From a virus (taxonomy: Duplodnaviria; Heunggongvirae; Uroviricota; Caudoviricetes): a DNA stretch of 14,535 nucleotides. The notes below the pieces were generated by a model, which saw only the letters and a program-made list of their open reading frames with translations, was not told the origin of the DNA and searched no databases. A program made the position numbers and the translations under genes. This document shows positions 1 through 14,535 of the stretch, piece by piece. The number at the start of each line of letters is the position of its first letter. Position 1 is the stretch's first letter. The stretch lies in the IMG/VR virus record IMGVR_UViG_2534681705_000018, positions 1 to 14,535 of that record; one strand, 5' to 3'.

Positions 1-318
1 ATAAATCTCACTCTCGTTTTTTTTGATATCAAAATCATCTGTTTCAAAATCTTCCTCGTACTCAAAATGATCAGCCATTTTTAACTCCTCTGGATAAATT
101 AAATCACAAATTTTTGTATTATAAATAACCGCATAAGCCAAATTATTTGAGATTAATAAAACATCACCAACTTCAATATCAACAAGACTTCTGTAACATG
201 TTTTACTAAATCCAATTACAAAATGAATGGACCAATATAATGATTTTTTGTCTAACACTGGAGCGTTTCCGTATTGGCAGACTGTGACTTTATCTAACCA
301 AAGATTCAATTCCCCTGT
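1..318 (-). pseudogene. Open frame continuing in the same frame directly after the TGA that ends ORF 319..684, running off the window start. Either the 3' part of a nonsense-interrupted gene or a separate gene using the ATG at 78.
   Basis: Hand translation after the stop at 319-321 gives TGELNLWLDKVTVCQYGNAPVLDKKSLYWSIHFVIGFSKTCYRSLVDIEVGDVLLISNNLAYAVIYNTKICDLIYPEELKMADHFEYEEDFETDDFDIKKNESEIY. That is 106 sense codons with no stop in very AT-rich DNA. The only ATG is at 78, preceded by GAGGAG (85-90). Confidence 0.4.
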
Positions 319-684
319 TCATATTCTTATTAGTGGTTGAGCAGGGCTCAATACTCCATCAAATACTTTACCTACGTGCAAACGATTATATTTTAGTTCA
401 GGATGCTTTAGATTTAACGGGGAACTGGATAAACTGAGCCATTCCCCTATTAACCTTTCCGTTTCTGGCATTAAAGCCATCCCAGCGAGCTCAGATGAAA
501 TTAAGGGAAATATTTCTCCAAGCAATACCCATCCAGACCAGCTGCCACTCTCTTCTGCTATCGGTAACCATTTAGCACTAAATTCGGGCATTAATAATGC
601 AACATCTTCGCCATTTTCTTTCCAATTTTGAAAAGTGGTTTCAAACGTATGAGTGTTTCGATTTACTTTCCTCAGACCGAACAT
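319..684 (-). CDS. Hypothetical protein (121 aa), possibly the N-terminal part of a gene disrupted by an in-frame TGA.
   Basis: ORF track. ATG start. Low-GC flank outside the island. No family recognised. Confidence 0.45.
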   Translation of the reverse strand: MFGLRKVNRNTHTFETTFQNWKENGEDVALLMPEFSAKWLPIAEESGSWSGWVLLGEIFPLISSELAGMALMPETERLIGEWLSLSSSPLNLKHPELKYNRLHVGKVFDGVLSPAQPLIRI

Positions 685-815
685 TAACTTTCATCCTTCT
701 GATCGTTTTCGAATTTGCTTTCATTTTCTTGCTCCTCATAAGGCTGATGTCGTTGTCCTTGTCGTTCATCTTGCTCAGTCAATACCCAACGTTGTGCTGT
801 AACTCATTATGAAAA

Positions 816-2426: not shown

Positions 2427-2659
2427 AAAATATTCCATCAATCGTTTGTTAAAAGCGTAGATAACCACTTATTTAACAACTTGAAAATAAGGTGTTTTAC
2501 CTGGGTTGTTACAAAAGGATTGCATTGCGTAAACGCTTTTTATTTACAACAAAATGGGGAAGTATTACGGCGATTGCGAAAAGTCTGAAGCGATTGAATT
2601 AAGATAATATAGAAAATCAGATACAGCAAAAATGGCAGATTGATCAGGTGAAGATAAAT

Positions 2660-2676
2660 TGGAGCGGCGAAGGGAA
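2660..2676 (-). repeat. Putative attR core: a degenerate copy of a tRNA-Gly(CCC) 3' end.
   Basis: The plus strand reads TGGAGCGGCGAAGGGAA. Its reverse complement, TTCCCTTCGCCGCTCCA, matches the glyU 3' end as I recall it (TTCCCTTCGCCCGCTCCA) except for one missing C. The orientation fits a minus-strand tRNA lying just beyond the integrase start. Confidence 0.55.
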
Positions 2677-2826
2677 CAACACAACAAGCCACAAGACCAG
2701 TAATAAAGGCGCATTCGCGAGTTCTAAAATAAATTCTATACACATTTCTATACACATTTATCACTCGCTTGGGGATTACACATCCCCTGTTAACCGTGAT
2801 CAAGCTGGTGGATGATCACGGATAAA

Positions 2827-2850
2827 CCGATATGGGAATCCCCATATCGG
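2827..2850. repeat. Perfect 10-bp inverted repeat with a 4-nt spacer.
   Basis: CCGATATGGG aatc CCCATATCGG. Confidence 0.7.
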
Positions 2851-2855
2851 CATCG

Positions 2856-2894
2856 CGTAGTTAATCGTAGTGGCTACCGTAGTAGCCTCCGTAG
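2856..2894 (+). repeat. Four phased CGTAG(T) direct repeats; candidate recombinase or RDF arm-type sites.
   Basis: CGTAG starts at 2856, 2866, 2878 and 2890 (spacing 10, 12 and 12 bp), 180-235 bp from the putative att core. Confidence 0.5.
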
Positions 2895-2932
2895 TTGAGT
2901 AGCAGGATGTAACCTGCCAGGAAGGAAATGAT

Positions 2933-2968
2933 CGTGACTCGCCGTGACATGGCGTGATTAATCGTGAC
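2933..2968 (+). repeat. Four CGTGA(C/T) direct repeats spaced exactly 10 bp apart; candidate arm-type or bending-protein sites.
   Basis: atCGTGACtcgcCGTGACatggCGTGATtaatCGTGACacc. Copies start at 2933, 2943, 2953 and 2963. Confidence 0.55.
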
Positions 2969-2970
2969 AC

Positions 2971-3006
2971 CAAACAAAAATCCTTACCCGTAGGCTTAAT
3001 GTAAGG
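2971..3006 (-). terminator. Possible weak intrinsic terminator closing the last island transcription unit.
   Basis: The minus strand reads CCTTAC-13 nt-GTAAGG followed by ATTTTTGTTTG. The stem is only 6 bp. An alternative 7-bp hairpin (GTAAGGC/GCCTTAC, 3001-3023) overlaps it. Confidence 0.3.
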
Positions 3007-3035
3007 CTTGGCTGTAGCCTTACCGAACGCGCCGC

Positions 3036-3215
3036 TCACCGTCGCGGCCTGTCCGGTTTCCGCCACTGATACGGCCTCACATCATCATGCTGGTGGCGCT
3101 CCTGTTGCAGCACAACGGAAACAGGCGCTGAACACCTGTTAATTTTGCTTGCTGGTTGTTTGATTCCGGCAATGCTGCGGATCATCTCCAGCAAATCGGC
3201 TTCGGTGATGGTCAT
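3036..3215 (-). CDS. Small hypothetical protein (59 aa), below the ORF-track cutoff.
   Basis: Hand translation gives MTITEADLLEMIRSIAGIKQPASKINRCSAPVSVVLQQERHQHDDVRPYQWRKPDRPRR. AAGGTG lies 6 nt upstream of the ATG at 3215. The possible terminator follows. Confidence 0.35.
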   Translation of the reverse strand: MTITEADLLEMIRSIAGIKQPASKINRCSAPVSVVLQQERHQHDDVRPYQWRKPDRPRR

Positions 3216-3222
3216 GATTTAC

Positions 3223-3510
3223 ACCTTAGGAAATCTTAGGGGGCTGGTTGACACTTTCCGGCTTAAGACCTTAATAAATCTTAATATCGTAGGTTGACAC
3301 ACTTGACACTTTTTCGGGAAAAACCTTAACAAAACTTAACCATCCCTGGCATTTCTAAGCATGGCAACTTGACACTTTTCGCTATTTTTTCGGCTTTTTG
3401 ACGTGGTAAATCTGGCGAAAGGCCAGTAATGGCGTGGCTTACAGCGAGGTTGACACTTTTTCGCGTTCAGAGTGTAAAGTGTCAACCTGGCAAGCTGCTC
3501 AACTTGACAC
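3223..3510 (+). repeat. Composite repeat array; putative packaging-recognition (cosB/pac-like) region.
   Basis: Six direct TTGACAC copies start at 3248, 3294, 3303, 3369, 3450 and 3504 (extended form TTGACACTTTTTCG). There is one inverted copy (GTGTCAACC, 3479-3487) and one degenerate copy (TTGACGT, 3397). These interleave with three 18-mers of form ACCTTAnnAAAnCTTAnn at 3223, 3268 and 3323. The array starts 10 nt after the stop of the TerS-like gene. Confidence 0.6.
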
Positions 3511-3519
3511 TTTTTGAGG

Positions 3520-4047
3520 TCATTGATGGCCTGATTTTTCCCACTCAGCCAGGGCGTTTAGTCCGGCTTCACTCCAGTTATCCAGCTCATCGGGACAATC
3601 ACCTGCAACATAGCAGAGCTCACAACGCAGCATACGAATTGCCAGCCTGGCATTTTCCCGAAAATCATACTGCTCAAAGTAATATTGCCCAGCATAATCC
3701 TCAAGGCAGATAGCACCATCATCAAGAAATTGCACTTCACAGCATAATTCCCCGGCTGCATCCTGCACACGCTGCTGTATGTCATCGTCCGTTACTGGTG
3801 CAGGGATTTTACCGTCTCTGGCCTTAACTGCTTTCCAGAACTCGCCCCACGTCATTTCCAGCGTTCTCTCTGGCCACATTTCAGAAACGGGGTTTTTTCC
3901 CTGTGCTGGTGGGCTGTTCCGCTGCTCTGTCGCTTCCACATCAATTTTTTTGCCAGACATGATCACTTCGCCTTTCTCGATCCAGTCGTAAACTGTCTGG
4001 CGGCTTACGCCTTTGTGTTTGGCATATTCTGCCTTGCTCATCAGCAT
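3520..4047 (-). CDS. HTH protein resembling a small terminase subunit N-terminus; candidate TerS-like or Rpp-like packaging redirection factor.
   Basis: The N-terminus MSKAEYAKHKGVSRQTVYDWIEKGEV is a Nu1/TerS-style HTH. GGTGAG lies about 7 nt upstream of the ATG. The gene is 6 nt downstream of the preceding gene and directly abuts the repeat array. Confidence 0.55.
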   Translation of the reverse strand: MLMSKAEYAKHKGVSRQTVYDWIEKGEVIMSGKKIDVEATEQRNSPPAQGKNPVSEMWPERTLEMTWGEFWKAVKARDGKIPAPVTDDDIQQRVQDAAGELCCEVQFLDDGAICLEDYAGQYYFEQYDFRENARLAIRMLRCELCYVAGDCPDELDNWSEAGLNALAEWEKSGHQ

Positions 4048-4053
4048 TATGAC

Positions 4054-4725
4054 TCACCCTTCTTTTTCCAGTTGAGCCAGCCGCCCGGATATTTCTTCCA
4101 GTTTTTCCAGGGCTGGCTTGCAGGCCGCATCAATAACATCCCGGACCATTCCGGCAAGCTGCTCTTCTGCTGTCGGCGTTGTTACTTCCACACCCGATGG
4201 TTTCCCTCCCTTATCCCATACACCCAGCGGTACGAGGGCAACGTGATCGATAAGAAATGGCGTACCCTCAATGACAAAATTGTCCTCGCCCATTACATCA
4301 GGAACTTCTGCCCCACCGGACGCACCACAAAACACAACCGACGGGCTGGTGGATACCTCCCCCCGGGCTTTCTGGATGTAATCGATGATTTCCTGCCCGT
4401 AAATCCGGCATACGCCCCACACCTCGTCATCGCGAATATACGGCAACATAACGGTGCCAATAATGCGCGACCGTTCGCCCACGTCTTCAATGGTTTTGCC
4501 TTCGGGATGGTCGATAATGACGGGTACTCCGGCGCAACGTTCCAGGAACTGCGGATTGAGATAAGTTTGCGGTGAACGCCAGACAAATTCTTTTTCTTCG
4601 GCGCGGTAGGCCATTCCGGTTCCTGTGATACGCAGGTTAACCAGCCACATGTTGGAGAACTGATAAGGCGACGGTAGCTGACCGTCCCGAATCTGCTTCG
4701 CCGCCTCAATTTCTGTTAAAAGCAT
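4054..4725 (-). CDS. Phage prohead protease/scaffold-like protein (DUF2213/XkdF-like pattern).
   Basis: GVPVIIDHPEGKTIEDVGERSRIIGTVMLPYIRDDEVWGVCRIYGQEIIDYIQKARGEVSTSPSV resembles the His...Gly...Ser core pattern of HK97-type prohead proteases. The C-terminus is coiled-coil-like (LEKLEEISGRLAQLEKEG). Assignment is by eye only. Confidence 0.45.
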   Translation of the reverse strand: MLLTEIEAAKQIRDGQLPSPYQFSNMWLVNLRITGTGMAYRAEEKEFVWRSPQTYLNPQFLERCAGVPVIIDHPEGKTIEDVGERSRIIGTVMLPYIRDDEVWGVCRIYGQEIIDYIQKARGEVSTSPSVVFCGASGGAEVPDVMGEDNFVIEGTPFLIDHVALVPLGVWDKGGKPSGVEVTTPTAEEQLAGMVRDVIDAACKPALEKLEEISGRLAQLEKEG

Positions 4726-4749
4726 AATGTTATCCGGTTATAAGCAATA

Positions 4750-4773
4750 AGCCCCGCCAAATCCGGCAGGGCT
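4750..4773 (-). other. Intergenic GC-rich hairpin between the two morphogenesis-like genes.
   Basis: The minus strand reads AGCCCTGCC ggattt GGCGGGGCT: a 9-bp stem with one U-G pair, followed only by a weak U-tract (TATTGCTT). It could be a partial terminator or an mRNA stabiliser. Confidence 0.35.
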
Positions 4774-4789
4774 GAACTCAGCACGTTTT

Positions 4790-5368
4790 TCATGCCCCCG
4801 CGAGGCTTGCAGTGTTAATTTTGACCAGGCGACGGGGAGGGATTTTGAAGGCGTTCAGCCAGACGTTCGGATCGCCCTGATATTCAGTAATACGACGACC
4901 AGCTTCATCCATTCTTACGGTTTTACCCAAATGGCCCGGCGTGTTTTCCACGGCCCACTGAGCACTTTCCTGAGCAGCCTTGTAAATCTGATCTTCCAGC
5001 ACCGCCAGCGTTGCAGAATCTGAAACGGAACGAATATCCACATCACTGAATTTTTTAGCCAGCTTCTGTGCGCCAATTAATGCACGCTTGCGGTAATCCA
5101 TCGACTTTTCACCAGCAAACGGGGCCGGAGCTCGACGGCCCATATTGCTGTATGCGGAATCCGCTTTAGCCTGGGCTTCTGCCAGTGAGGATTCATCTTC
5201 GACTGACGCGACGATGTTTTGATTAGCGTTATCCTCTTTTATGAAATCCTGTGCGGGGATCGCATTCAGAATTTCGATAATCTCCTGCGGAGTGCTGCCC
5301 TGCGACTCTGACAGAGCGTTAACCACCTCCATCAGTTTTAATCGCAAATCTTCTTTGCTTGCTGGCAT
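4790..5368 (-). CDS. Hypothetical structural or scaffold-like protein (192 aa).
   Basis: The ORF-track start at 5377 is a GTG that sits inside the SD GAGGTGG. The likelier start is the ATG at 5368 (MPASKEDLRL...). The N-terminal half is acidic and helical. No family recognised. Confidence 0.6.
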   Translation of the reverse strand: MPASKEDLRLKLMEVVNALSESQGSTPQEIIEILNAIPAQDFIKEDNANQNIVASVEDESSLAEAQAKADSAYSNMGRRAPAPFAGEKSMDYRKRALIGAQKLAKKFSDVDIRSVSDSATLAVLEDQIYKAAQESAQWAVENTPGHLGKTVRMDEAGRRITEYQGDPNVWLNAFKIPPRRLVKINTASLAGA

Positions 5369-5407
5369 TTTTACCACCTCTCTTTTTTCACCAAAAAATC
5401 ACGACCA

Positions 5408-5581
5408 TCAGGCCGGACGTTCTACGGGATAAAGCGCCCGCTGCATTAAACGCCGGGCGACCTCATGAATGCTCGGAGCAATCCCCAGCGGAGAATTGCG
5501 GCGTTCCTCGTCCTGGATGCGCTGTAATGCTTCAATCTGATCACGAGCGAGTAAAACGGGTTTCACGCTGGCTTTTCTCAT
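5408..5581 (-). CDS. Ribbon-helix-helix (Arc/CopG-like) DNA-binding protein.
   Basis: MRKASVKPVLLARDQIEALQRIQDEE...SIHEVARRLMQRAL fits a beta-alpha-alpha RHH pattern. AGGAG lies 8 nt upstream of the ATG at 5581. Alternative starts are at 5587 and 5605. It is the first gene after the double terminator. Confidence 0.5.
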   Translation of the reverse strand: MRKASVKPVLLARDQIEALQRIQDEERRNSPLGIAPSIHEVARRLMQRALYPVERPA

Positions 5582-5705
5582 AGTCATATCTCCTGAACAA
5601 AACAATGATTATGATTGCACAAACTGAAATGACGATCTACATCGTTGCAATTTATGAAACGATAACGCATGATGATCGCGTTCTTCCCATTGACTTCAAT
5701 CACCT

Positions 5706-5745
5706 GAAAAACAAAGCCCGCAACACTTCTGGCTGCGGGCTTTTT
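5706..5745. terminator. Bidirectional intrinsic terminator.
   Basis: Stem GCCCGCA (5716-5722) / TGCGGGC (5734-5740) with an 11-nt loop. The tail is TTTTT on the plus strand and TTTGTTTTT on the minus strand. Confidence 0.65.
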
Positions 5746-5751
5746 ACTGGC

Positions 5752-5777
5752 ACAAAAAAGCCGGGAAAAATCCCGGC
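5752..5777 (-). terminator. Intrinsic terminator 5 nt after the PerC-like gene.
   Basis: The minus strand reads GCCGGGA tttt TCCCGGC followed by TTTTTTG. Confidence 0.75.
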
Positions 5778-5782
5778 CTCCG

Positions 5783-6070
5783 TCACTGACTGCAATTTTT
5801 CGATCCAGGGTATTTCCTGAATGCCTTACCATTGGGCTGATGTAATCCCATCCCGGCATGTGCCCGGCTGATGGTTTCGCGCATCTCCCCGAAATTATCC
5901 TGCCGTGCTGGTGGGCGTGCTGCCTTGCGGATACATTCCGCGCGACGTTTTGCCGCCTGTTCCCGTGCCTTGTCATCATTCGCCAGCATGATGACCTCAG
6001 CCCACCGCGCCGCCGCTCTCCGGTACAGACCACGCGCTTCCAGTGCTTCCGCTTTGCTGTCGTGAATCAT
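5783..6070 (-). CDS. PerC-family transcriptional regulator-like protein.
   Basis: AEALEARGLYRRAAARWAEVIMLANDDKAREQAAKRRAECIRKA matches the PerC/Pch core (LE..G.YRRAA.RW...RR..C). The start overlaps the upstream stop (ATGA). Confidence 0.7.
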   Translation of the reverse strand: MIHDSKAEALEARGLYRRAAARWAEVIMLANDDKAREQAAKRRAECIRKAARPPARQDNFGEMRETISRAHAGMGLHQPNGKAFRKYPGSKNCSQ

Positions 6071-6597
6071 GCGCCTGTTTTCTCCCTGGCTGCCCGGCGC
6101 TGACGTTTGCGCTTCTCATTCAGCGCTACCAGCCGCGTTTCTGCGTCCTGTTGTTCCTGTGGTGTCACCTCGCCGCACGGCTGGCCTTTCAGGTCGTAGC
6201 GTACCCCACCAGCCATTAAGGCGCGGTAATAGCGCGGACACTGCGCATAAGATGCCAGCGTCGCACGTAATGCCCCTGGCCCGAATGCCAGCCCCCTGAC
6301 GGCGAGATCCTGCATCAGGTCGTCGAATATCCCCACCTTAAGCGGCTTCGGTGCTTCCCGGCTGAATAATTCAGGCCACAACTCAGTGAGGCGGTTAACG
6401 CGCCTGCGGTTTTTGCGCTGGCGCTTGGTCATATGCCGCCACGGTGTCGCCCCTGTGGGCTTCTGCTGCGCTTTCTGGTTACCGGGCATCACTTTATGCG
6501 CCGACGTGGTTTTATCCTGCTCCTGTGCCGCCTGCGTCGTTTTCTGCGGCGTGCCATAAATGCCTTTCGGTTTTCTGTTAATGGTCAGCTTAGTCAT
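6067..6597 (-). CDS. FinO/ProQ-domain RNA-binding protein with a basic, Q/K-rich N-terminal extension.
   Basis: LTELWPELFSREAPKPLKVGIFDDLMQDL...LRATLASYAQCPRYYRALMAGGVRYDLKGQPCGEVTPQE parallels the ProQ N-terminal (FinO) domain (FP.CF....PLKIGIFQDL...LR.AL..Y....YL......R.DL.G.PCGE). The start is chosen at 6597 because of the ATGACTAA overlap; an alternative ATG is at 6609. Confidence 0.8.
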   Translation of the reverse strand: MTKLTINRKPKGIYGTPQKTTQAAQEQDKTTSAHKVMPGNQKAQQKPTGATPWRHMTKRQRKNRRRVNRLTELWPELFSREAPKPLKVGIFDDLMQDLAVRGLAFGPGALRATLASYAQCPRYYRALMAGGVRYDLKGQPCGEVTPQEQQDAETRLVALNEKRKRQRRAAREKTGA

Positions 6598-6937
6598 GCT
6601 TTGCCCCATCGTTTTTACTGATTATTTCATGCCCGGAACTTTCATCTACCGGATACCACGCAAATGATCCAGGTTCATCAGAAAGAATGAATTTTGTGTT
6701 TGGCAAATACATGCATTCGTAAAAACCATCTTCCTGATGATACGGTGCCATTCCATACTCACCAGTAAGAATCGGTAATATTTCAGAATAAATTTCTGAA
6801 TCACCAGAATAAAACACATCACAAATCGCCCATGCTGCAATCGGACTATACCAGTCGTTGCCATTATCATTCCTGAATTTTGCCCACCAACCCTGAACCG
6901 CTGGCGAAATATTTTTGGGTATAGCTTCAAGAAACAT
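6590..6937 (-). CDS. Orphan hypothetical protein (115 aa, acidic, Trp/Tyr-rich) in an AT-rich segment immediately after the origin.
   Basis: AAGGGGG lies 4 nt upstream of the ATG. Hand-counted GC for 6661-6720 is 21/60, against 39/60 for 6121-6180 in the next gene. No family recognised. Confidence 0.6.
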   Translation of the reverse strand: MFLEAIPKNISPAVQGWWAKFRNDNGNDWYSPIAAWAICDVFYSGDSEIYSEILPILTGEYGMAPYHQEDGFYECMYLPNTKFILSDEPGSFAWYPVDESSGHEIISKNDGAKHD

Positions 6938-7010
6938 ACAACCCCCTTTGCAACTCTATTTCTATAATTTCGTGATAAAAATTCCAATTATTCACACTAT
7001 TCCATTTTGA

Positions 7011-7290
7011 TTGTGAACAGTCGTGAATAGTTAGTGAACAGTTTTTTAATAACTGTTCACTATGTTTTTTAGTTTAAAATCATATGGTTATTTTGTTTCA
7101 GTGAACAGTTGAACAGTTACCCCCTATAGAATTTAATTTGCAGTGAAAATGATTCACTGTTACAAGTTACAATGCGTTTTAAAAGTTTTAGCCGAAACTG
7201 TTCACGGCGTTCATTTCGTCGATGAATCCAGTAATGACGCAGCTTTTAGAGGTGAACACTACTGTTCACCACTGTTCACCACTGTTCACT
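7011..7290. repeat. Iteron-type origin of replication.
   Basis: GTGAACAG is at 7013, 7034 and 7101. Its complement CTGTTCAC is at 7053, 7198, 7262, 7272 and 7282; the last three form the tandem (ACTGTTCACC)x3. One-mismatch variants are at 7023, 7109 and 7252. The copies flank AT-rich stretches and sit directly downstream of the primase-helicase gene, overlapping its stop. Confidence 0.75.
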
Positions 7291-9058
7291 TTTCATGGAT
7301 TTTTGGCACAGCGGGTAACCATTCATTAGCACTGTCAGCCAGCTCCATGTTGTAGCGCATTCCGACATTGGTCTTTGCCTTCTTATACTCAGCCCCATAT
7401 TCTTTCATCACTTTTGGGAAATCTTTGCCAAAATTAGTTAGATTTAATGGCTTATCGAAACCATAAGCATCCATATATGCAAGATATGCATGGTAAAGAT
7501 AAATTCGAGGGGCTCTTGGATATATATTCAGGTTTCCCATGAACATTCCTACAGCTTCACCAAGTTCGACAATATGGTTACAAAAAGCATATAGCGGATC
7601 AGTATGGCGTTTTACTTCCATTGCTTCTTCACCATCACGTTGCTCGAGCAGTAATGTTCTTGCTTTTTCGGGATCTGAAAAATTTACCAACAGCCTACGG
7701 ACTATTACCGGAATTTCCGCTGCAATTTTTTTGGGTAAACATGTGTCCTTGTTTTCTTCCGCTATCGGATTATTGAACTGAAAAATAACCCTACGGCGTG
7801 AAATACCTCCCGCTCTTTCTGTAAAAACCATCGGTTTATTATTTGTTATCAAAACAACTGAGCGTAAGACAGTGGTGTATCTTTTTTCATATTTCGGGTT
7901 AATTTGCAGAGGATCCCCACCTGTTATAGCTTTAATACCATTACCTTCACCAAAATATTTAGGTTGGTCCGGTAAAATAATCAGACTTTTACCAACTAGT
8001 TGCTCACGTCCACCAGCATCATCTAACGCTTTCATATCACTGCCTGCGGTGTTCTGCTCACCCGCCAACATTCTGGCAATTTGAGTAAACATACTTTTAC
8101 CACTTCCACCTTCGCCAGTTGCTTCAATGAATAATTGCCAGTCGTAGCGATTAGCCAAAACCATAAACAGAGCAGCACATATCCGCTTCATCTTTGATGA
8201 ATCGTATCCTGCTGCATGTGACAGCCAACGATGAAAATGGGGCGCATGGTCATGAATATTTTCACCAGGCGCAGGTGGCGTATAATAAATTCCATTATGC
8301 GAAGTGATCCAGTGCTCTGGTGAATGAGGTAAAAATCTACCACTTGTTATGTCATAAACTCCATTTTCAAAAGGTATTATGGTGTCACTCTGTTCTCTCA
8401 TTACGGGTACAGATATTTTTAAAGCATCAACCGCATTACTAATTGCCCGCTTACTGAAATTTGTCTTGTTTTTTTCGTAAATTGATACCATTTTACGACT
8501 CAACTCCATATCAGATATTTTTTCCCACACTCCAGAACAGTATGCATAAGCAAAATTGTTACCAGGGTGAACAGCTATTTCCTCAAAGCATTCAGCCAAA
8601 AGTGAAGCTCGCTCGTTATCCGCCATTCTGGAAAGAGAGATTTTGTGTTTTTTCTCAGTCCTTCCTGACAGAATATCCCCGCGCTCTGCCTGTTCGCGGA
8701 TCCGTTGCAGGTAATCGCGCCAGTTCTCCGGTTCCCGGTCGGTGATGCCTTTGTATAATTTCGCCTCCTGTACGCCAGCCAGCGCCAGCTTTTCAGCGAT
8801 AGCATTGATCTGGATTGGTTCGATCTCCCCCGCGAGATAGACACGCGCAAAGCGGCGTTTCTCGTCAATAATGCGGATATTCGCCAGGTCTGCCAGTTGC
8901 TTTGGCCCCAGGTAAACAGGTGGTACGTTATCGCCGTGTTTTCGTCCTTCGCTTTCAATCCAGTGTTGAGCATGGGAGTAAGCGTCCGTCCCGGCAAAAA
9001 TGATTACCTCGGTGAATTTATCCTTCGGCTGATATTTTAAATTCGGTGCGTTTTTCAC
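7286..9058 (-). CDS. P4/D5-family primase-helicase (replication initiator, SF3 helicase).
   Basis: Walker A is GEGGSGKS and Walker B-like is SLIILPD. A D5_N-like region precedes them (IPFENGVYDITSGRFLPHSPEHW). The start is a GTG overlapping the upstream TGA (GTGA), with GGAGGT 5 nt upstream. The first internal Met is only at about codon 154. Confidence 0.85.
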   Translation of the reverse strand: MKNAPNLKYQPKDKFTEVIIFAGTDAYSHAQHWIESEGRKHGDNVPPVYLGPKQLADLANIRIIDEKRRFARVYLAGEIEPIQINAIAEKLALAGVQEAKLYKGITDREPENWRDYLQRIREQAERGDILSGRTEKKHKISLSRMADNERASLLAECFEEIAVHPGNNFAYAYCSGVWEKISDMELSRKMVSIYEKNKTNFSKRAISNAVDALKISVPVMREQSDTIIPFENGVYDITSGRFLPHSPEHWITSHNGIYYTPPAPGENIHDHAPHFHRWLSHAAGYDSSKMKRICAALFMVLANRYDWQLFIEATGEGGSGKSMFTQIARMLAGEQNTAGSDMKALDDAGGREQLVGKSLIILPDQPKYFGEGNGIKAITGGDPLQINPKYEKRYTTVLRSVVLITNNKPMVFTERAGGISRRRVIFQFNNPIAEENKDTCLPKKIAAEIPVIVRRLLVNFSDPEKARTLLLEQRDGEEAMEVKRHTDPLYAFCNHIVELGEAVGMFMGNLNIYPRAPRIYLYHAYLAYMDAYGFDKPLNLTNFGKDFPKVMKEYGAEYKKAKTNVGMRYNMELADSANEWLPAVPKIHEK

Positions 9059-9345
9059 TTCTTACCTCCCGCAACCAACATTGCCCGGATTTTTTTAATA
9101 TTCGTGGCTGCACGTCTCGCCACCGCCTGTTGTTTGTTTTCCACCAGAATAAAATCACGCTCAAACTGACGGCGCGGCATTACGCAGTCATATTCGTAAG
9201 CCTCACGGCGGTAGGTGATATTGCCTGGCGTAACGTGACGAATAACCACTCGTCCCCCACGTCTGGTGTCGCGGTAAATATCTCCGTGTCTGATTTCAGG
9301 CCGAGCGGGGCCGCTGGCAGTAAAGCCAGAATTTTTCTTTTTCAT
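9055..9345 (-). CDS. Small basic hypothetical protein (96 aa); possibly a DUF4222-type prophage protein.
   Basis: ORF track. Tightly packed in the operon, with its stop overlapping the primase start. The family assignment is from memory only. Confidence 0.55.
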   Translation of the reverse strand: MKKKNSGFTASGPARPEIRHGDIYRDTRRGGRVVIRHVTPGNITYRREAYEYDCVMPRRQFERDFILVENKQQAVARRAATNIKKIRAMLVAGGKK

Positions 9346-9349
9346 GGTT

Positions 9350-9550
9350 TTATTTTCCTGTCAGCAGTTCCGGTTTTATTTCCGCACGAATACAGAGTTC
9401 AGAAAAAAATTCAGGAGAACCAACAATCTCATTACTTTTCAGTCGGCATTGTGATTTCACTTTTCCTTTATCCAGGTAAACCAGTATGCGTCCGGTGAAA
9501 TCATCTGGCGCACTCAGGGTAATTGTCATTGTTGCTTGCTGATTATCCAT
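9350..9550 (-). CDS. Small hypothetical protein (66 aa) carrying one copy of the FTG repeat domain.
   Basis: The start overlaps the upstream stop (ATGGATAA). It contains DDFTGRILVYLDKGKVKSQCRLKSNEIVGSPEFFSELCIRAEI. Confidence 0.6.
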   Translation of the reverse strand: MDNQQATMTITLSAPDDFTGRILVYLDKGKVKSQCRLKSNEIVGSPEFFSELCIRAEIKPELLTGK

Positions 9551-9908
9551 GATTCACCCCCTGAATAACCTGATAACCGCAACTGGTCAGCAATTCGATA
9601 AATTCCGGCAATGTGCCGAAACAGTAATCATCACGCAGACGTTCGCGGGATACTTCAACGCCGTTTTCGTAGTGACTCACCATGCGTCCGGTAAAATGCA
9701 GATCATCATCGTGATGGCACGTTAACGGCTTAATCAGTCGCGCACGTTCTGCCAGTTCCAGCAATGCTTCAACGCTTCCGGCAATTGCACCATCCGGCAG
9801 GTTGTAATTACGCACTATGCGCCCGTTCTCCACATGGACCAGTAGCTGCCCGGTAAATTTCTCGTCAAACTGAATGCGGTTAAGGTCGGTAAGTGACAGG
9901 TTAATCAT
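9543..9908 (-). CDS. Hypothetical protein (121 aa) with two copies of the FTG repeat domain.
   Basis: The start overlaps the Icd-like stop (ATGATTAA). The two internal copies are EKFTGQLLVHVENGRIVRNYNLPDGAIAGSVEALLELAERA and LHFTGRMVSHYENGVEVSRERLRDDYCFGTLPEFIELLTSC. Confidence 0.65.
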   Translation of the reverse strand: MINLSLTDLNRIQFDEKFTGQLLVHVENGRIVRNYNLPDGAIAGSVEALLELAERARLIKPLTCHHDDDLHFTGRMVSHYENGVEVSRERLRDDYCFGTLPEFIELLTSCGYQVIQGVNHG

Positions 9909-10104
9909 GGCGTACCTCCTGACGAATACGGGCGGCGAATACCATCACGCAGCCATCAGGAGATTGCTGGCGTGCTTCCTGTTCGCTGGTGGCCTCGATG
10001 TGAATCACGCGCGGTTGTGCCGTGCTCAGAGCGATAAAACGCCAGATGTATTTATTCAGGTTGTGCGAGTCCCGCCCTTGCGGGTGTGTGGTATGATTTC
10101 TCAT
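9901..10104 (-). CDS. Host cell division inhibitor Icd-like protein (67 aa).
   Basis: MRNHTTHPQGRDSHNLNKYIWRFIALSTAQPRVIHIEATSEQEARQQSPDGCVMVFAARIRQEVRHD. The pattern IEATSE.EAR....FAARI recalls Icd-like proteins of P4-type elements. It has its own SD (GAGG, 5 nt upstream of the ATG at 10104). It lies in frame at the 3' end of the 402-codon ORF. Confidence 0.6.
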   Translation of the reverse strand: MRNHTTHPQGRDSHNLNKYIWRFIALSTAQPRVIHIEATSEQEARQQSPDGCVMVFAARIRQEVRHD

Positions 10105-11109
10105 AGCTACCTCGATAATCTTGCTATCGTTGGTGGTTAGAAGCTCTGCGAGTGGTAACGACACTTGCGGGGCTTTGCCTTTAAGGTGCAAGTCACCTTT
10201 GAGGGTTATGCTACTTTTAGGTGACTTGCACTTCAAGCCTTTTTTTATTTTTTTTTCTACGTATACTGAACGCCACCTAACAGTAAGGAGGCCAGTAATG
10301 CCAACGGGTACAACCAACAACAAATCACAACAAAAAACGGCTAGAATCCCTCTAGAAGTTTTAAGCGAAATGAATTTGGTCAAAGAGGAAAACGAAACAG
10401 ACGCGCAGTTTATCGTTACAGCCATGCGTGGCGAGATCAAACGCCGCCAGCGCCGCAAGGCCAAAGAACAGGAGTAACCATCACCAGCGCCGTGGTGTGA
10501 GGAACTACGGTGCATCGTTTTACAGGGCAGCGCCATGACCAACAAAGAATCAACCAAAACACCATCACCAACTCGTAAGAGACGACGCAAAAATATAGCG
10601 CATGAACATGAATCAGAAAGATTCGCACCTTGTTCGTTTGCTCTTGAGAAATTCCTTAAAGAGCACAGGAAAAAGCTCTCGTTGCAAACCTTGGAACGAA
10701 CCAAATCTGACTGATCACATTGCCCACCAGCCGCAAATGTGGCATTGTTGGTGATGCGTTCAAGTATGTAGCTTTTCCACTGGCGGCTCTCTGCGGTCGC
10801 CTTTGTTTTATCCAGAACGAAATCAGACATCAGATTGATCAGCACCTGGCGACCTGACAAAATCGCATCAGTCGCGCCACCAGCAAAATTTTTTGCTTTC
10901 CGGACAGCGTGGCCAACGATATTTTGCAGCAAAATATTCTGCATTTCTGGCGTGCTGTGGCGACGGTGATCAGCGCCTTCACATTGAACGAACTTGTCGC
11001 TAAAATTCACCCACATAGCAAACATCGCGGTGCTGTAGGTAATTCGTTCACAAAGGCGCTCCGGCAACGGGGCGCTTTCTCTTTTTGTAACGGTCAGAGC
11101 GTTACACAT
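9901..11109 (-). CDS. 402-codon ORF as drawn, probably composite. Only the first ~140 codons (about 10690-11109) look like a genuine protein.
   Basis: The ATG at 11109 overlaps the antirepressor stop (ATGTGTAA), which suggests translational coupling. The N-terminal part looks protein-like. The middle ~200 codons are Cys/Ser/Leu/Arg-rich and cross the operator hairpin, a T-run and the antisense of the SD-bearing RHH gene. The last 67 codons are the Icd-like gene. Confidence 0.35.
   Translation of the reverse strand: MCNALTVTKRESAPLPERLCERITYSTAMFAMWVNFSDKFVQCEGADHRRHSTPEMQNILLQNIVGHAVRKAKNFAGGATDAILSGRQVLINLMSDFVLDKTKATAESRQWKSYILERITNNATFAAGGQCDQSDLVRSKVCNESFFLCSLRNFSRANEQGANLSDSCSCAIFLRRLLRVGDGVLVDSLLVMALPCKTMHRSSSHHGAGDGYSCSLALRRWRRLISPRMAVTINCASVSFSSLTKFISLKTSRGILAVFCCDLLLVVPVGITGLLTVRWRSVYVEKKIKKGLKCKSPKSSITLKGDLHLKGKAPQVSLPLAELLTTNDSKIIEVAMRNHTTHPQGRDSHNLNKYIWRFIALSTAQPRVIHIEATSEQEARQQSPDGCVMVFAARIRQEVRHD
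10185..10232. promoter_or_regulatory. Paired palindromic operators forming a 13-bp perfect inverted repeat in the divergent control region.
   Basis: GTGCAAGTCACCT (10186-10198) and AGGTGACTTGCAC (10219-10231). Each arm is itself GGTG-N5-CAC(C). The centres are about 34 bp apart. The repeat lies between the Icd-like start (10104, minus) and the RHH start (10298, plus). Confidence 0.55.
10298..10477 (+). CDS. Ribbon-helix-helix protein (59 aa), transcribed divergently from the replication operon.
   Basis: A consensus SD, TAAGGAGG, lies 7 nt upstream of the ATG at 10298. KTARIPLEVLSEMNLVKEENETDAQFIVTAMRGEI fits the RHH pattern and is followed by a basic tail. TATACT lies about 30 nt upstream. 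Confidence 0.55.
   Translation: MPTGTTNNKSQQKTARIPLEVLSEMNLVKEENETDAQFIVTAMRGEIKRRQRRKAKEQE
10535..10714 (+). CDS. Possible small basic protein (59 aa), below the ORF-track cutoff.
   Basis: Hand translation gives MTNKESTKTPSPTRKRRRKNIAHEHESERFAPCSFALEKFLKEHRKKLSLQTLERTKSD. It is in the same plus frame as the RHH gene, separated by a single TAA. The SD is weak. It is antisense to the long minus ORF. Confidence 0.3.
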   Translation: MTNKESTKTPSPTRKRRRKNIAHEHESERFAPCSFALEKFLKEHRKKLSLQTLERTKSD

Positions 11110-11950
11110 GGCTGTTTTCCTCCATGCGACGGGCTAACCAACGCTGCGAAAGACGAATTAATTCAGCCTTCCGCTGGTGGTAGTCCTGGCCTAACTCAAT
11201 CAGCGTGATATTGCTCTGCTCAAGGTAAGAAAGGTGCTCAAGCTGCAACGTGCTCATGTGGTCGCGTGGTTCGCCTGTAATGCCGTTCGCCAGTGCCCAC
11301 TGTTTTGCAGTCATGCCACCCAGCACGATACGCGCCAGCATGTTCGCTTCCGTGGTGTAGTGGTGCTGGAGTGTGTTTTTACCCAGTTCAGCCCGGTACG
11401 CCTCCAGCGCGGCACACATTGGCTTAAAGTAGCTGGCAACTGTGATACGGGCTTTCAGTTCCCGGCGTAACGCTGCGGAACGCACTGGCGCTACCTTGTG
11501 TAGCTCCTCCTCGCATTTGATAAAGTACTGGCGAACGGCGCGGCCCTGTTCGGTACGTTCGACCATCGCCAGTTCTTTCGCCATGTTCGTGGAGATCAAA
11601 TAGTCTTCACTGCGACGATCACCGCCGCGCTTTGTTGTCCAATCAAAATCAAACTGTTCAATATTTACACTTTGGTTCCCCCGTTTCGGGGAATCAAAGT
11701 ACAAATTTTCTACAACTTCAAAATCCACGCCATTTTTAAATCCGTACTCATCAATACGTCCTTTAATCCAGGTAGTGAAATCACGGCCTACCCCGAGCGC
11801 CTTATGCAACGCTCTGGCGCTAACAATATTGGTTTCACGCCCGCCAATAACGCCGGAAATAACCGGGATAATTTCGCCAAAATTTTGCAGATTCTGGTTT
11901 TCAGGCCGAACGAAGCCCTGCCCCTGTACGGGCGTTTTTCGCAGTTTCAT
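11102..11950 (-). CDS. Phage antirepressor, AntA/AntB N-terminal domain family.
   Basis: NIVSARALHKALGVGRDFTTWIKGRIDEYGFKNGVDFEVV and DYLISTNMAKELAMVERTEQGRAVRQYFIKCEE are typical AntA-domain signatures. AGGAG lies 5 nt upstream of the ATG. Confidence 0.75.
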   Translation of the reverse strand: MKLRKTPVQGQGFVRPENQNLQNFGEIIPVISGVIGGRETNIVSARALHKALGVGRDFTTWIKGRIDEYGFKNGVDFEVVENLYFDSPKRGNQSVNIEQFDFDWTTKRGGDRRSEDYLISTNMAKELAMVERTEQGRAVRQYFIKCEEELHKVAPVRSAALRRELKARITVASYFKPMCAALEAYRAELGKNTLQHHYTTEANMLARIVLGGMTAKQWALANGITGEPRDHMSTLQLEHLSYLEQSNITLIELGQDYHQRKAELIRLSQRWLARRMEENSHV

Positions 11951-12028
11951 AAAAACTCCTGCTATCGAATTAAGTTACTTTTATTTGCTGGTGGATAGCT
12001 GGGGGCTTCTGGCCCCGTAGCCATTTAA

Positions 12029-12226
12029 TCAGGTAGCTGTTCCGCGTGATTCAGCAATACGCTGATTAATCCACTCGTCAATTTCACTCTCAACGAAAGC
12101 AATCGCTCGCGAGCCAATTTTAACTGATGCAGGAAATTTACCTTGCCCCATAAGGCGATAAATCCATGCCTTGCTATATCCAGTTCTACGCTGAACTTCC
12201 GTTAAACGAATAAGCGTATTTGACAT
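12029..12226 (-). CDS. alpA: AlpA-family (CP4-57 regulatory protein-type) HTH regulator or excisionase.
   Basis: LIRLTEVQRRTGYSKAWIYRLMGQGKFPASVKIGSRAIAFVESEIDEWI is the canonical Phage_AlpA pattern. GAGG lies 8 nt upstream of the ATG. Confidence 0.9.
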   Translation of the reverse strand: MSNTLIRLTEVQRRTGYSKAWIYRLMGQGKFPASVKIGSRAIAFVESEIDEWINQRIAESRGTAT

Positions 12227-12328
12227 ATATTTACCTCATAACGTCTACTCAATTTGACGAGGTAATCATGGCACAGAAATAACGAATATTTTCATACCCT
12301 CAGGCCTAATGGTAATCGGGAATATTTT

Positions 12329-12441
12329 TACCCTAAGGGTAATAGTAAAATTGATGGGAAAGCATACAAAAATACCCTAAGGGTGAGGTCTGATTACCCT
12401 TAGGGTGAGACGCGAACAAAACATGAGATACCACTAGGGTA
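12329..12441. promoter_or_regulatory. Array of four 13-bp palindromes upstream of alpA: operators and/or an RNA terminator hairpin.
   Basis: TACCCTAAGGGTA (12329-12341), TACCCTAAGGGTG (12373-12385), TACCCTTAGGGTG (12395-12407) and TACCACTAGGGTA (12429-12441). A half-site, TACCCT, is at 12295. On the minus-strand transcript, copies 3 and 2 can pair (11-bp stem, 11-nt loop) and are followed by ATTTTTGT. Confidence 0.6.
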
Positions 12442-12446
12442 AGGCT

Positions 12447-13193
12447 TCATCGTTTGATAGGACAGGCGACAAGCTCAATAGATGCGGCCTGTCGGGAGGT
12501 AAAACCTCGTTTTTCAAGCTCAGTAGTAATCGCGCCCTGGTTTCCCCTGGTGGCGCGCTCATTTTCCGGATCGTAATTGGCCCACTCTCTGTTTCTAATC
12601 TCGATAGCCAGATACAATGGGTCATCATCTCTGTATTTATTTAATAGAATTGGACGTTCGCTTTCGAGTTTGCGGATTTGCTCTTTAAGTGAAGAAATTT
12701 CCGCAAGTAACACTTCAATATTCTGTTCATCATCCAGAAACTCATTATCAACCACATCAGAAGTTGGTAGAGTTATTTCACTTAATGGTAAAAATAAATC
12801 AATGCCTATTTTCTCTGCAAATTCTTTAAGTTCTGCACGACGAAACCCATGCTTATCAAAAAGGCTTGCCGACCATCTTACATCACAATTTTGAAAAGGT
12901 GCGAATAATGCTATAGGCACACTATTTCTTTCACGAATAACTTCCAGGAGGTCTGTTAAAGTAGGGGCACTATTATATTGATTGGAAAGATCGACATATG
13001 TTGATTCAATAGTACCGGCAATACCTTGCTTAACCCATTCAGGAAGTTCAATCGCACATTCTTTCAAGTAAAGAAAATCTGCAATCTGTGAATAACTAAC
13101 ATGCGGTTGATGTAATTGAATACGAGTTATCAACTCCCTCAGGCTAATAAACTCCCACTCCCTTGCTTTAAGCACTTCGGCAATATCAATCAT
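12447..13193 (-). CDS. Mosaic orphan protein (248 aa): unknown N-terminal domain, coiled coil, and an HTH-like C-terminal tail.
   Basis: The ORF-track start at 13274 is a GTG. The ATG at 13193 has GAGGTG 5 nt upstream (MIDIAEVLKAREW...). The coiled coil is VLLAEISSLKEQIRKLESE. The C-terminus RGNQGAITTELEKRGFTSRQAASIELVA looks like a helix-turn-helix. Hand-counted GC is 21/60 at 12721-12780 and 33/60 at 12481-12540. Confidence 0.6.
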   Translation of the reverse strand: MIDIAEVLKAREWEFISLRELITRIQLHQPHVSYSQIADFLYLKECAIELPEWVKQGIAGTIESTYVDLSNQYNSAPTLTDLLEVIRERNSVPIALFAPFQNCDVRWSASLFDKHGFRRAELKEFAEKIGIDLFLPLSEITLPTSDVVDNEFLDDEQNIEVLLAEISSLKEQIRKLESERPILLNKYRDDDPLYLAIEIRNREWANYDPENERATRGNQGAITTELEKRGFTSRQAASIELVACPIKR

Positions 13194-13320
13194 ACGCACA
13201 CCTCGGCGTCCTCTGTAGTGGTGGCTGTGCCAGCCCGCAGAGGTGTACGGGTTTTCAGGAGCGACCCTAGACACAGCCTTTTCTTAATCGCTCAAAGTCT
13301 ACTACTGTATACTCAACCAG

Positions 13321-14535
13321 TCACCCGCATTTTCCGAACTCACCATGCACCACATTTCCGCCATGCTCGAGCGAATCCATATAGTCGGCATACCACTGGA
13401 GCATCTCCCGGCGACCATCCAGATATTGCGCATGGTTGTATGTGCCACGAATTGAGTTTTTATCGACGTGTGCGAGCTGTGTCTCTATCCACGCGGTGTT
13501 ATAGCCCTGCTCATGCAAAATGGTGCTCATGGTGTGCCGGAATCCATGACCAGTAACGCGCCCGGCATAGCCGATACGACGAATGAGCACATTCATCGCC
13601 ATTTCACTCATTGGCTTACTGTGGTGAATACGACCGGGGAAAATAAACTGATACTGGCCTGTCATGTTTTTTAACTGCTCCAGTATTTTTATCGCCTGTT
13701 CTGGTAATGGCACACAATGCGGACGGCGCATCTTCATTCGTTCTTTAGGCACTTCCCACAAACGATTATCAAAATCGATCTCCAGCCATTCTGCCTGCCG
13801 TAATTCCCCGGGTCTGACACCTGTCAGAATTAATAGCCGCATTGCCAGTTTGACGATCTGGCTTCCGGTGTACGTATTAAAAACGCGGAAAAATTCCGGC
13901 AGTTCGTCGGCTTTCAAATAGGCGTAATGCTCTTTTTTATGTGGAGCAAATGCGCTCACCAGGTCAGGGGCTGGATTATATTCGGCGCGTCCGGTGATGA
14001 TTGCGTACCGGAACACCTCGCCGCATCGCTGGCGAACCTTACGCAATTTTTCAGTCGCACCACGGTCATTAAGACGGGAAAGAACCGCCAGCAATTCCAT
14101 CGGCTTAATTTCTGCGATCGGCCTACCGCCAATGTACGGAAAAACATCTTTTTCAAACGTCTCGATCATTTCCTCGGCGTATGACGATGACCACCTGTCG
14201 ATCCGCTTTTCGTACCATTCGCGAGCAATACCCTCAAAAGTATTGCCAAATTTGCTCGCCTGTTCTCGCTTTTGGGCTTTTCTGGCCTCACTTGGATTTA
14301 TACCACCAGCAAGAAGCCTTTTAGCCTCATCCCTTGCCGCCCTGGCATCAGACAGAGACACATCAGGGTATACCCCCAACGACAACATTTTGGGCTTTCC
14401 TGCAAACCTGTAGCGCAGTCGCCACCCTTTCGAACCGTTCGGCTCAATGAGCAACGAAAGCCCGTTACCGTCATTGAGTGTATAAGCCTTTTCTTTCGGC
14501 TTCGCGCGCCTGATGGCAAGGTCTGAAAGCAGCAT
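13321..14535 (-). CDS. int: P4/CP4-57-type tyrosine integrase (tRNA-targeting family).
   Basis: The N-terminal arm-binding-type region is LSDLAIRRAKPKEKAYTLNDGNGLSLLIEPNGSKGWRLRYRF. Catalytic-region motifs are TGVRPGELRQAEW, HGFRHT and IRGTYNHAQY. This is the full 404-aa ORF, and the window ends on its ATG. Confidence 0.95.
   Translation of the reverse strand: MLLSDLAIRRAKPKEKAYTLNDGNGLSLLIEPNGSKGWRLRYRFAGKPKMLSLGVYPDVSLSDARAARDEAKRLLAGGINPSEARKAQKREQASKFGNTFEGIAREWYEKRIDRWSSSYAEEMIETFEKDVFPYIGGRPIAEIKPMELLAVLSRLNDRGATEKLRKVRQRCGEVFRYAIITGRAEYNPAPDLVSAFAPHKKEHYAYLKADELPEFFRVFNTYTGSQIVKLAMRLLILTGVRPGELRQAEWLEIDFDNRLWEVPKERMKMRRPHCVPLPEQAIKILEQLKNMTGQYQFIFPGRIHHSKPMSEMAMNVLIRRIGYAGRVTGHGFRHTMSTILHEQGYNTAWIETQLAHVDKNSIRGTYNHAQYLDGRREMLQWYADYMDSLEHGGNVVHGEFGKCG

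Follow-up and report, generated by a model that had tools for sequence, protein, structure and literature searches.

A predicted ribbon-helix-helix repressor gene, a candidate antisense RNA and a bridging reading frame in the putative immunity region of an Escherichia coli phage satellite

The virus record IMGVR_UViG_2534681705_000018 was analysed over its positions 1 to 14,535 (the window, 14,535 nucleotides (nt) in full). Judged from its sequence, the window is an Escherichia coli phage-satellite island of the Gram-negative phage-inducible chromosomal island (PICI) or P4 type. The region of interest, 9901-11109, holds a small plus-strand gene of the YlcI/YnfO family that diverges from the replication operon, whose first gene is Icd-like. 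For comparison, 62 loci with homologues of the small gene were fetched from many Enterobacterales genera; promoter counts were made on 65-66 loci. The genes, open reading frames (ORFs) and predicted sites of the region are as follows.

9901-10104, minus strand: Icd-like gene that opens the replication operon, 67 amino acids (aa), homologous to P4 kil
9901-11109, minus strand: eta-like bridging ORF of 402 codons, ending in frame as Icd
10092-10097, plus strand: TATGAT, putative -10 hexamer of the antisense promoter P_as, after TGG (extended -10), inside Icd codons 3-5
10104-10182, plus strand: putative structured cis-antisense RNA with estimated ends; hairpin 1 at 10106-10137, hairpin 2 at 10140-10175, U-rich tail at 10174-10182
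10186-10196: putative operator box O1, GTGCAAGTCAC, around +6 to +16 on the P_L transcript, inverted relative to O2 here
10208-10236, minus strand: putative leftward promoter P_L, analogue of P4 PLE; -35 TTGAAG (10236-10231), 17-nt spacer, -10 TAGCAT (10213-10208)
10221-10231: putative operator box O2, GTGACTTGCAC, within the P_L spacer
10262-10267, plus strand: TATACT, putative -10 hexamer of the rightward promoter P_R
10266-10277: putative operator box O3, CTGAACGCCACC, which overlaps the P_R -10 at its end and also the start site
10284-10291, plus strand: Shine-Dalgarno sequence TAAGGAGG of the YlcI/YnfO-family gene, 6 nt 5' of the ATG
10298-10477, plus strand: YlcI/YnfO-family gene, 59 aa, predicted ribbon-helix-helix (RHH) repressor
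10535-10714, plus strand: ORF2, 59 aa, basic, an E. coli-lineage accessory of uncertain status

The YlcI/YnfO-family gene and its predicted fold

A reading made from the letters of this DNA only (the sequence-only reading) had described a 59-aa plus-strand ORF with a consensus Shine-Dalgarno sequence, diverging from the Icd-like/primase operon at a start-to-start distance of 193 nt in an island otherwise transcribed from the minus strand. The ORF is present at these coordinates, with a strong Shine-Dalgarno sequence. Its ATG at 10298 and the minus-strand start of the Icd-like gene at 10104 are separated by 193 nt, and every other large ORF in the window is read from the minus strand. The encoded protein, MPTGTTNNKSQQKTARIPLEVLSEMNLVKEENETDAQFIVTAMRGEIKRRQRRKAKEQE, belongs to the YlcI/YnfO family, matching NCBIfam NF041551 over residues 9-50 with 62.9 bits against a cut-off of 30; the homologue in E. 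coli cq9 scores 71.1 bits on the same model. The product also matches phrog_949, which has no assigned function. A total of 114 homologues were found across Enterobacterales, with invariant residues that include N7, K9, S10, A15, R16, P18, E33, F38-I39-V40, E46-I47 and R49-R50-Q51. Related loci carry GGAG-type motifs at the position equivalent to the Shine-Dalgarno sequence, and in almost all the fetched loci the gene is placed between int/alpA(/antA) and the divergent operon that runs from Icd to the primase gene. Among 63 distinct homologous genes, the ratio of nonsynonymous to synonymous polymorphism (pN/pS) is lowest in the plus frame (0.415 vs. 0.524 in the overlapping minus frame), in which codon position 2 is the most conserved.

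The AlphaFold2 (AF2) model of the protein has a mean predicted local distance difference test (pLDDT) score of 82.6 and resembles ribbon-helix-helix proteins. Profile alignment with hhalign placed residues 8-32 on residues 5-29 of Arc, covering the strand and helix A, with R16 and P18 on R13 and P15 of Arc (E 7e-4, probability 27%); the alignment with Mnt was not significant. The window protein itself has no match in Pfam at E values up to 0.1. The sub-threshold Pfam matches among 46 homologues fall exclusively into RHH-type families, PF07704 (13 members, best E 0.0094) and PF18064 (12 members, best E 0.011). A sequence-profile search of the PDB with the protein returned chance matches and no RHH protein, a Foldseek search of the PDB with the AF2 model returned nothing useful, and tblastn against a phage collection gave no match. 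The fold is thus likely, not proven, since membership in an RHH family is not seen at the sequence level and the N-terminal strand is left unmodelled in the monomer.

YlcI and YnfO (NF041551; DUF3950) occur in the cryptic prophages DLP12 and Qin of E. coli K-12, in contexts other than the present one. The window protein is a member by its family score; newly proposed in this analysis are its placement in a satellite, its operators and an RHH fold. [quoted passage not shown] The homologue in cq9 (L001, 12396-12701) is a 101-aa version with a 42-aa C-terminal insertion (phrog_6522), as in some other cassettes, and the insertion does not close the overlapping minus-strand ORF of that locus, which measures 445 codons. 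The homologue of Xenorhabdus littoralis (L053, ~2760-3160) is the sole one found without upstream boxes, promoters and antisense RNA, indicating that the family occurs outside the module too.

ORF2 follows in the frame of the RHH gene after a single stop codon, as the sequence-only reading had noted in suggesting a possible toxin-antitoxin-like module. Such a type II pair would combine an RHH antitoxin with a small basic toxin and use the inverted repeat of the upstream interval as its autoregulatory operator. ORF2 matches phrog_21027 (E 3e-15), is hypothetical in the annotation of the Prokaryotic Genome Annotation Pipeline (PGAP) and has a pN/pS of 0.47 in both overlapping frames. However, of the 66 loci just L001-L004, from E. 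coli, have it, and it is missing from the other 61 loci, which retain the RHH gene, the boxes and the promoters; a genome scan with ORF2 as the query confirmed no locus. In many loci without ORF2, alpA begins within ~300 nt, so that a partner gene would not fit. ORF2 drew no match in Pfam, NCBIfam or PADLOC, toxin-antitoxin and defence families included, and a terminator-like hairpin (10487-10513) parts it from the RHH gene. Moreover, two of the three boxes lie on the divergent promoter and not on that of the supposed pair. A toxin-antitoxin module is unlikely on these grounds, and we give the type II pair hardly any credence.

Operator boxes and promoters between the two start codons

The sequence-only reading had announced a perfect 13-bp inverted repeat, which is found at 10186-10198 (GTGCAAGTCACCT) and 10219-10231 (AGGTGACTTGCAC). 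The longest perfect repeat in 2000 shuffles of the 193-nt interval was 11 bp, with 0/2000 reaching 13. The repeat had been taken for a pair of palindromic operators. The repeat is real, but comparison of about 100 related loci showed that the unit is a single 11-bp GTG-N5-CAC box, that three copies of it stand in a fixed layout between the two start codons and that the inverted pair is specific to a lineage. Direct O1 copies occur in 31 loci and inverted ones in 18; thus, the inverted repeat is one arrangement of a general three-box operator. The third box, O3, has a fixed position in most loci. A weak Rfam match to MIR399 in the interval was rejected as merely the operator inverted repeat.

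The minus-strand promoter proposed earlier, TTGAAG-17 nt-TAGCAT overlapping the boxes, is likewise present, and its -35/-10 layout is kept in the related loci. The P_L -35 reads TTGA(C/A/G)G in 56/65 loci, the -10 reads TAnnnT in 55/65, and no locus departs from a spacer of 17-18 nt. The P_L -10 is flanked by O1 and O2, with O1 just downstream of it. On the other strand, the P_R -10 is TATACT in 49/66 loci and TAnnnT in 61/66, and it stands 36 nt 5' of the ATG in 60/66. The positions of the boxes at -35, -10 and +1 argue for repression of P_L and autoregulation of P_R. A repressor/operator switch architecture, as the earlier reading had called it, is supported at the level of sequence by boxes and promoters that are position-conserved across Enterobacterales and by box cores that covary with the predicted beta-strand residues of the protein.

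The O2 and O3 cores of the same locus agree on average at 3.9 of the five positions, compared with 1.64 of five between motif groups, and none of 20000 permutations reached the observed value. The cores covary with residues 11-15, directly before the invariant R16-x-P18, and each variant of these residues has its own box core. The motif KSQMTTVRIP pairs with the box GTGAAATACAC, KSQQLNARFP with GTGAATCGCAC and KSKKLEARVP with GTGTCAGCCAC. A natural swap is seen between the window and E. coli 08-00022 (L003), in which the integrase, AlpA, AntA, Icd and primase proteins are 95-100% identical to those of the window (primase 98%, AlpA 97%). Between the two islands, the RHH proteins share only 54% identity and none of the three boxes is the same, which ties the boxes to the RHH protein. 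A similar relation holds for cq9, whose flanks are ~99% identical to those of the window, as against ~60% for the operator-plus-RHH cassette. Since three copies change together inside one locus, linkage alone cannot be the explanation.

The boxes might instead be bound by another factor, such as the primase acting on iterons, AlpA or a helper-phage protein, or the RHH protein might serve as an activator or as a cofactor of excision or packaging. The P4 alpha protein binds short repeats at the P4 origin, according to the features of the P4 record, and the YlcI/YnfO proteins of DLP12 and Qin stand in other contexts, so that the family need not always be a repressor. However, in the comparison with L003 the near-identical primase and AlpA go with different boxes, and only the RHH protein and ORF2 (76% identical) diverge strongly. 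This comparison led to the rejection of the boxes as replication iterons. In addition, the boxes occupy -35, -10 and +1, as is typical of repression, and their spacing from the promoters is constant in ~60 loci. We therefore regard another binding factor or another role of the protein as improbable, and a repressor acting at P_L and P_R is the reading that we carry forward.

A candidate antisense RNA and a bridging reading frame

The earlier account of the region overlooked a putative structured RNA at 10104-10182. A second, GC-rich inverted repeat lies between the Icd-like gene and O1, and its mismatches are all G·T on the plus strand. The plus-strand RNA of 10100-10185 folds at -37.4 kcal/mol (z -6.4), compared with -16 kcal/mol (z -0.7) for the minus strand. 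An RNA read from the plus strand would be complementary to the Icd Shine-Dalgarno sequence (GAGG, 10113-10110), the Icd ATG and nearly the whole P_L leader. In an alignment of 54 loci, 98.6% of the cells pair and compensatory changes are found at 14/21 pairs; the pairing exceeds that of all 500 shuffles and of every slid control. The alignment holds 151 cases of G·U on the plus strand (A·C on the minus strand) and five of the converse, and one G·U pair is invariant in 53/54 loci. The plus strand is the more stable one in 54/54 loci, by 4.8-21.6 kcal/mol. A covariance model found exactly one copy per locus, always antisense to Icd, in 38 held-out loci, and no copy in P4. An Rfam scan of the window gave no family for the hairpins.

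The putative promoter of this RNA, P_as, lies within the Icd coding sequence. In the alignment the T, the A and the final T of its TAnnnT are invariant and the middle three bases vary; the motif is held in 62/66 loci, and its conserved A faces a synonymous position of an Icd codon. A start ~7 nt 3' of the P_as -10 would set the 5' end of the RNA at hairpin 1. A separate GC-rich hairpin, CCCGC-CCTT-GCGGG (10071-10084), lies in the Icd coding sequence just upstream of P_as and is conserved where Icd starts with MxNHT (class A loci).

The hairpins at 10106-10175 could alternatively act in the leader of the leftward transcript, as DNA, or as a leader or attenuator of the RHH mRNA. Hairpin 1 is able to form on either strand, and the imperfect U-tract after hairpin 2 would permit read-through into the RHH gene. 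The strand-specific pairing seen in the G·U counts and in the stabilities excludes the DNA role and the minus-strand leader. The remaining variant, a leader or attenuator of the RHH mRNA, is compatible with most of the model proposed below. Overall, we judge these alternatives unlikely, and a cis-antisense RNA directed at Icd is preferred.

All the features named by the sequence-only reading are found where it put them, although the open minus frame was only half noticed there. The interval between the two starts is not simply intergenic, since the minus strand forms one 402-codon open frame across it, from 11109 to 9901. The ATG of this bridging ORF (11109-11107) overlaps the stop codon of antA (11104-11102), is preceded by GGAGG, and opens a frame that is antisense to ORF2, the RHH gene and the promoter/operator region before it ends in frame as Icd. 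In 39/39 distinct E. coli-type loci the frame is open from the homologous ATG to the Icd stop, over 258-598 codons; it has 0 stops, compared with means of 12.6-24 in the other five frames. Across genera, the median open length is 269 codons, against 31.5 for the other minus-strand frames. The start-to-start distance varies in steps of 3 nt (184, 187, 190 ... 205) in 38 loci.

The part that encodes the Icd-like protein is constrained (71.7 bits on NF033153; pN/pS 0.25). Outside Icd, the bridging ORF has a pN/pS of 0.74-0.99 (10715-11109) and 0.95 (10105-10297) with no 3-base periodicity of conservation, and its AF2 model is below pLDDT 50 throughout, with a mean of 28.8. With no amino-acid constraint and an unstructured model, selection seems to act on the openness of the frame rather than on its product. 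The N-terminal 131 codons (10715-11109) were considered as a real domain, or as cover for a hidden plus-strand gene, and rejected: no frame there has a coding signature and the AF2 model is unstructured. The segment 10715-11101, from ORF2 to antA, is conserved among E. coli islands and contains a plus-strand promoter-like site (10978-11006) and plus-strand terminator-like hairpins at 10782-10801, after ORF2, and 11053-11078. In all, four terminator-like sites were detected in 9800-11300, all on the plus strand, and no minus-strand intrinsic terminator was found in that range.

The contrary explanation would be that the only real gene is the 402-aa minus-strand 'Icd-like protein' and that the plus-strand ORFs are shadows kept open through shared third codon positions. 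The frame is indeed open over its full length in every related E. coli-type locus, has a good Shine-Dalgarno sequence, starts with an ATG that is coupled to the stop of antA, and is annotated in many public records; the identical 402-aa translation is present in NCBI E. coli records. Shared wobble positions let each frame keep the other open, and the pN/pS of ORF2 is equal in both frames. However, the long frame lacks protein-level constraint and periodicity outside Icd, and its model has a far lower mean pLDDT than that of the RHH protein. Of the two frames, it is the RHH one that has the lower pN/pS, along with the expected conservation of position 2; the gene has its own conserved Shine-Dalgarno sequence and -10, and the variable residues of its product track the boxes. 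A lone minus-strand gene is on this evidence very improbable. Both strands are probably translated, and only the small plus-strand product looks like a functional protein. Public annotations of the locus conflict: the Icd-like protein is given as 67 aa, 158 aa or 402-497 aa, and elsewhere YlcI/YnfO is annotated together with an opposite-strand hypothetical protein.

Island setting, proposed control and related systems

DNA matches to the window were found in 1499/5426 complete E. coli genomes. The further assigned features of the island are as follows.

6067-6609, minus strand: ProQ/FinO-family gene (Pfam PF04352, 84.1 bits)
7286-9058: D5/DUF5906 primase gene
11102-11950: AntA gene (AntA/AntB)
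12029-12226: AlpA-like gene
13210-13277, minus strand: Rfam int-alpA RNA motif RF02996 (47 bits against a gathering score of 35.8)
13321-14535: integrase gene (int)

The co-oriented order of int, alpA, a Bro/Ant zone, a primase replication zone and a late zone within ~10-16 kb is that of Gram-negative PICIs, as laid out in PMC10111431. Besides the Icd-like gene, the window has genes for DUF4222, DUF2213 and a terminase-small-like helix-turn-helix (HTH) protein; no scanned ORF was recognised as a homologue of sid, delta or psu by Pfam or PHROGs. The ProQ/FinO gene is also found in the related islands cq9 and ETEC1747, and a role of its product as the chaperone of the antisense RNA is a possible lead. 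RF02996 is located between the integrase gene and the ORF next to it, a 275-aa frame (12447-13274, minus strand) whose annotated 5' end it overlaps. This ORF, flanked by int and alpA, is set in DNA of low GC (~0.36-0.39) and has no match in Pfam, PHROG, NCBIfam or PADLOC. Related E. coli islands have another hypothetical gene at the same spot, suggesting a hotspot for cargo or defence genes. At the distal end of the island, a 550-aa ORF (816-2468, minus strand) in a low-GC segment has a borderline Glyco_hydro_15 match (22.4 bits, cut-off 22) and no PHROG match; it is probably accessory cargo.

We consider it fairly probable that the region is an immunity and early-control hub composed of the RHH repressor with its three boxes, the antisense RNA and the bridging ORF. 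The RHH protein, as a small dimer, would bind the three boxes; occupancy of O1 and O2 would shut off the Icd-like/primase operon at P_L, and O3 at the start of P_R would provide autoregulation of the RHH gene. The N5 core and the residues immediately preceding Arg16-x-Pro18 would set the specificity, so that different islands would carry different repressor-operator pairs, or immunity types. A constitutive P_as would supply the ~80-nt RNA, which would block Icd translation on the P_L transcripts and, by analogy with P1 c4/icd and P4 CI/kil, expose them to premature termination. Upon induction, the transcripts from the AlpA-activated alpA-antA operon would be translated straight through the bridging ORF. 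Neither P_L nor the Icd ribosome site would then be needed, and both controls would be escaped. With an open ORF free of constraint and no minus-strand intrinsic terminators, we infer by analogy that the termination suppressed by translation of the long ORF may be Rho-dependent.

Several observations weigh against this model. In the AF2 monomer the N-terminal beta-strand is not seen and a low-confidence helix takes its place (pLDDT 57-72), which is expectable for an obligate dimer. The pN/pS values separate the two overlapping frames only modestly, because the frames share third codon positions. O3 is the most degenerate copy in the window, with the core AACGC as against ACTTG in O2. The protein motif and the boxes are tightly linked, and their association may in part be co-inheritance of a cassette. 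P_R has no recognisable -35, and a generic promoter scan called none of P_L, P_R and P_as. The U-tract after hairpin 2 is interrupted, with a mean T fraction of 0.45, so transcription might run on past it and the RNA might form the leader of the RHH mRNA. Finally, in about one in four loci of the other genera the bridging frame is interrupted by a stop within its intergenic part.

Comparison with P4 showed a common scaffold. In both elements the first gene of the replication operon is Icd-like (71.7 bits for the window protein and 76.1 bits for the 65-aa Kil on NF033153), Icd or Kil forms the 3' part, in frame, of a long ORF whose start lies at the end of an upstream regulator gene, a promoter lies inside the long ORF, and the module is placed between an alpA-type gene and the primase gene. 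In P4 (L105, X51522) this ORF is the 214-aa frame 8168-8812 on the minus strand, which overlaps ORF88/vis and ends with Kil; the 1990 P4 record labels part of it as a 137-aa 'cI gene product'. Pairwise BLASTP of the window Icd against P4 Kil is weak (E 0.007), the link to P4 came through the NCBIfam model only, and a tblastn search with the Icd protein brought up one induced-prophage record from the phage collection and missed P4. The eta/kil scaffold is shared with P4 by homology. According to the account of Forti et al. (1999) in section 20 of PMC10111431, the internal-promoter transcripts of P4 are terminated under immunity, and eta translation from upstream prevents the termination. The maintenance of the ORF in the window fits this published eta logic.

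The immunity device itself differs. The sequence-only reading had placed the switch at the position of the P4 RNA immunity region, and the positions are equivalent: P4 has C4 and isrK there within its nested eta/kil-type ORF, and the window has neither. The P4 immunity factor is a processed RNA of the same strand, with C4 at 8420-8507 (74.9 bits) and the isrK-like seqA at 8615-8692 (60.8 bits); no Rfam match to C4 or isrK was obtained in the window, even at E values up to 10 on the 371-nt interval. In their place, the window has a divergent protein gene, three boxes and a fully complementary cis-antisense RNA that is absent from P4. Its bridging ORF has 402 codons compared with 214, the non-Icd part being without protein-level constraint, and the island as a whole is PICI-like in its int, alpA, antA, D5-type primase, ProQ and DUF2213 genes. 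The module is thus a candidate protein-plus-antisense-RNA replacement for the P4 CI RNA immunity region.

The immI region of phage P22 comprises mnt, the divergent Pant-Omnt region, arc-ant and the sar RNA. The window resembles it in the small predicted RHH repressor gene divergent from the controlled operon, the putative operators in overlapping divergent promoters, the short candidate cis-antisense RNA over a ribosome site, the antirepressor-family gene nearby and the weak alignment with Arc. However, no Arc/Mnt family membership is detectable, the window has one repressor rather than two, three 11-bp GTG-N5-CAC units and a replication operon in the place of an antirepressor, and its module is antisense within a long ORF. 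In the FinP/FinO system of F-like plasmids, a ~80-nt antisense RNA of two stem-loops and a 3' tail covers the 5' untranslated region and ribosome site of the first gene. The candidate window RNA likewise has two hairpins over the ribosome site of its target, and the ProQ/FinO gene belongs to the same element; it has no sequence or Rfam relation to FinP, and the co-occurrence of the RNA with ProQ/FinO comes from few long-flank loci. The Stl/Rpr repressors of the Staphylococcus aureus pathogenicity islands (SaPIs) are also encoded divergently from a replication/packaging operon with operators between (PMC6092414). They are large HTH proteins of an unrelated fold, in contrast to the 59-aa RHH protein, and the repressor here may be bypassed rather than inactivated. 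Induction of Gram-negative PICIs is thought to run through AlpA, and their global repressor is stated to be unclear (PMC6092414).

If the model holds, the module is a concrete, testable candidate for the repressor of Gram-negative PICIs. Gram-positive PICIs are kept silent by a master repressor of the Stl/Rpr kind. More tentatively, and with some doubt, many Gram-negative PICI/P4-type satellites could be controlled by a three-layer switch made of a YlcI/YnfO master repressor, a FinP-like RNA that possibly acts with ProQ/FinO, and an eta-like ORF that needs only to be translatable. The bridging frame would then be a case of selection for translation itself, and not for its product, over a gene on the other strand. 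The RNA is a well-supported motif new to Rfam, and the proposal gives the YlcI/YnfO (DUF3950) family its first functional hypothesis. It would also explain the widespread conflict between annotations of a 400-500-aa 'Icd-like protein' and of YlcI/YnfO with an opposite-strand hypothetical protein. The eta/kil design of P4 would be general and modular, with an immunity device made of RNA in P4 and of protein plus antisense RNA here. With repressor-operator pairs specific to each cassette, satellites residing together would be expected to fall into immunity groups, and the pairs may offer orthogonal parts for engineered PICIs.

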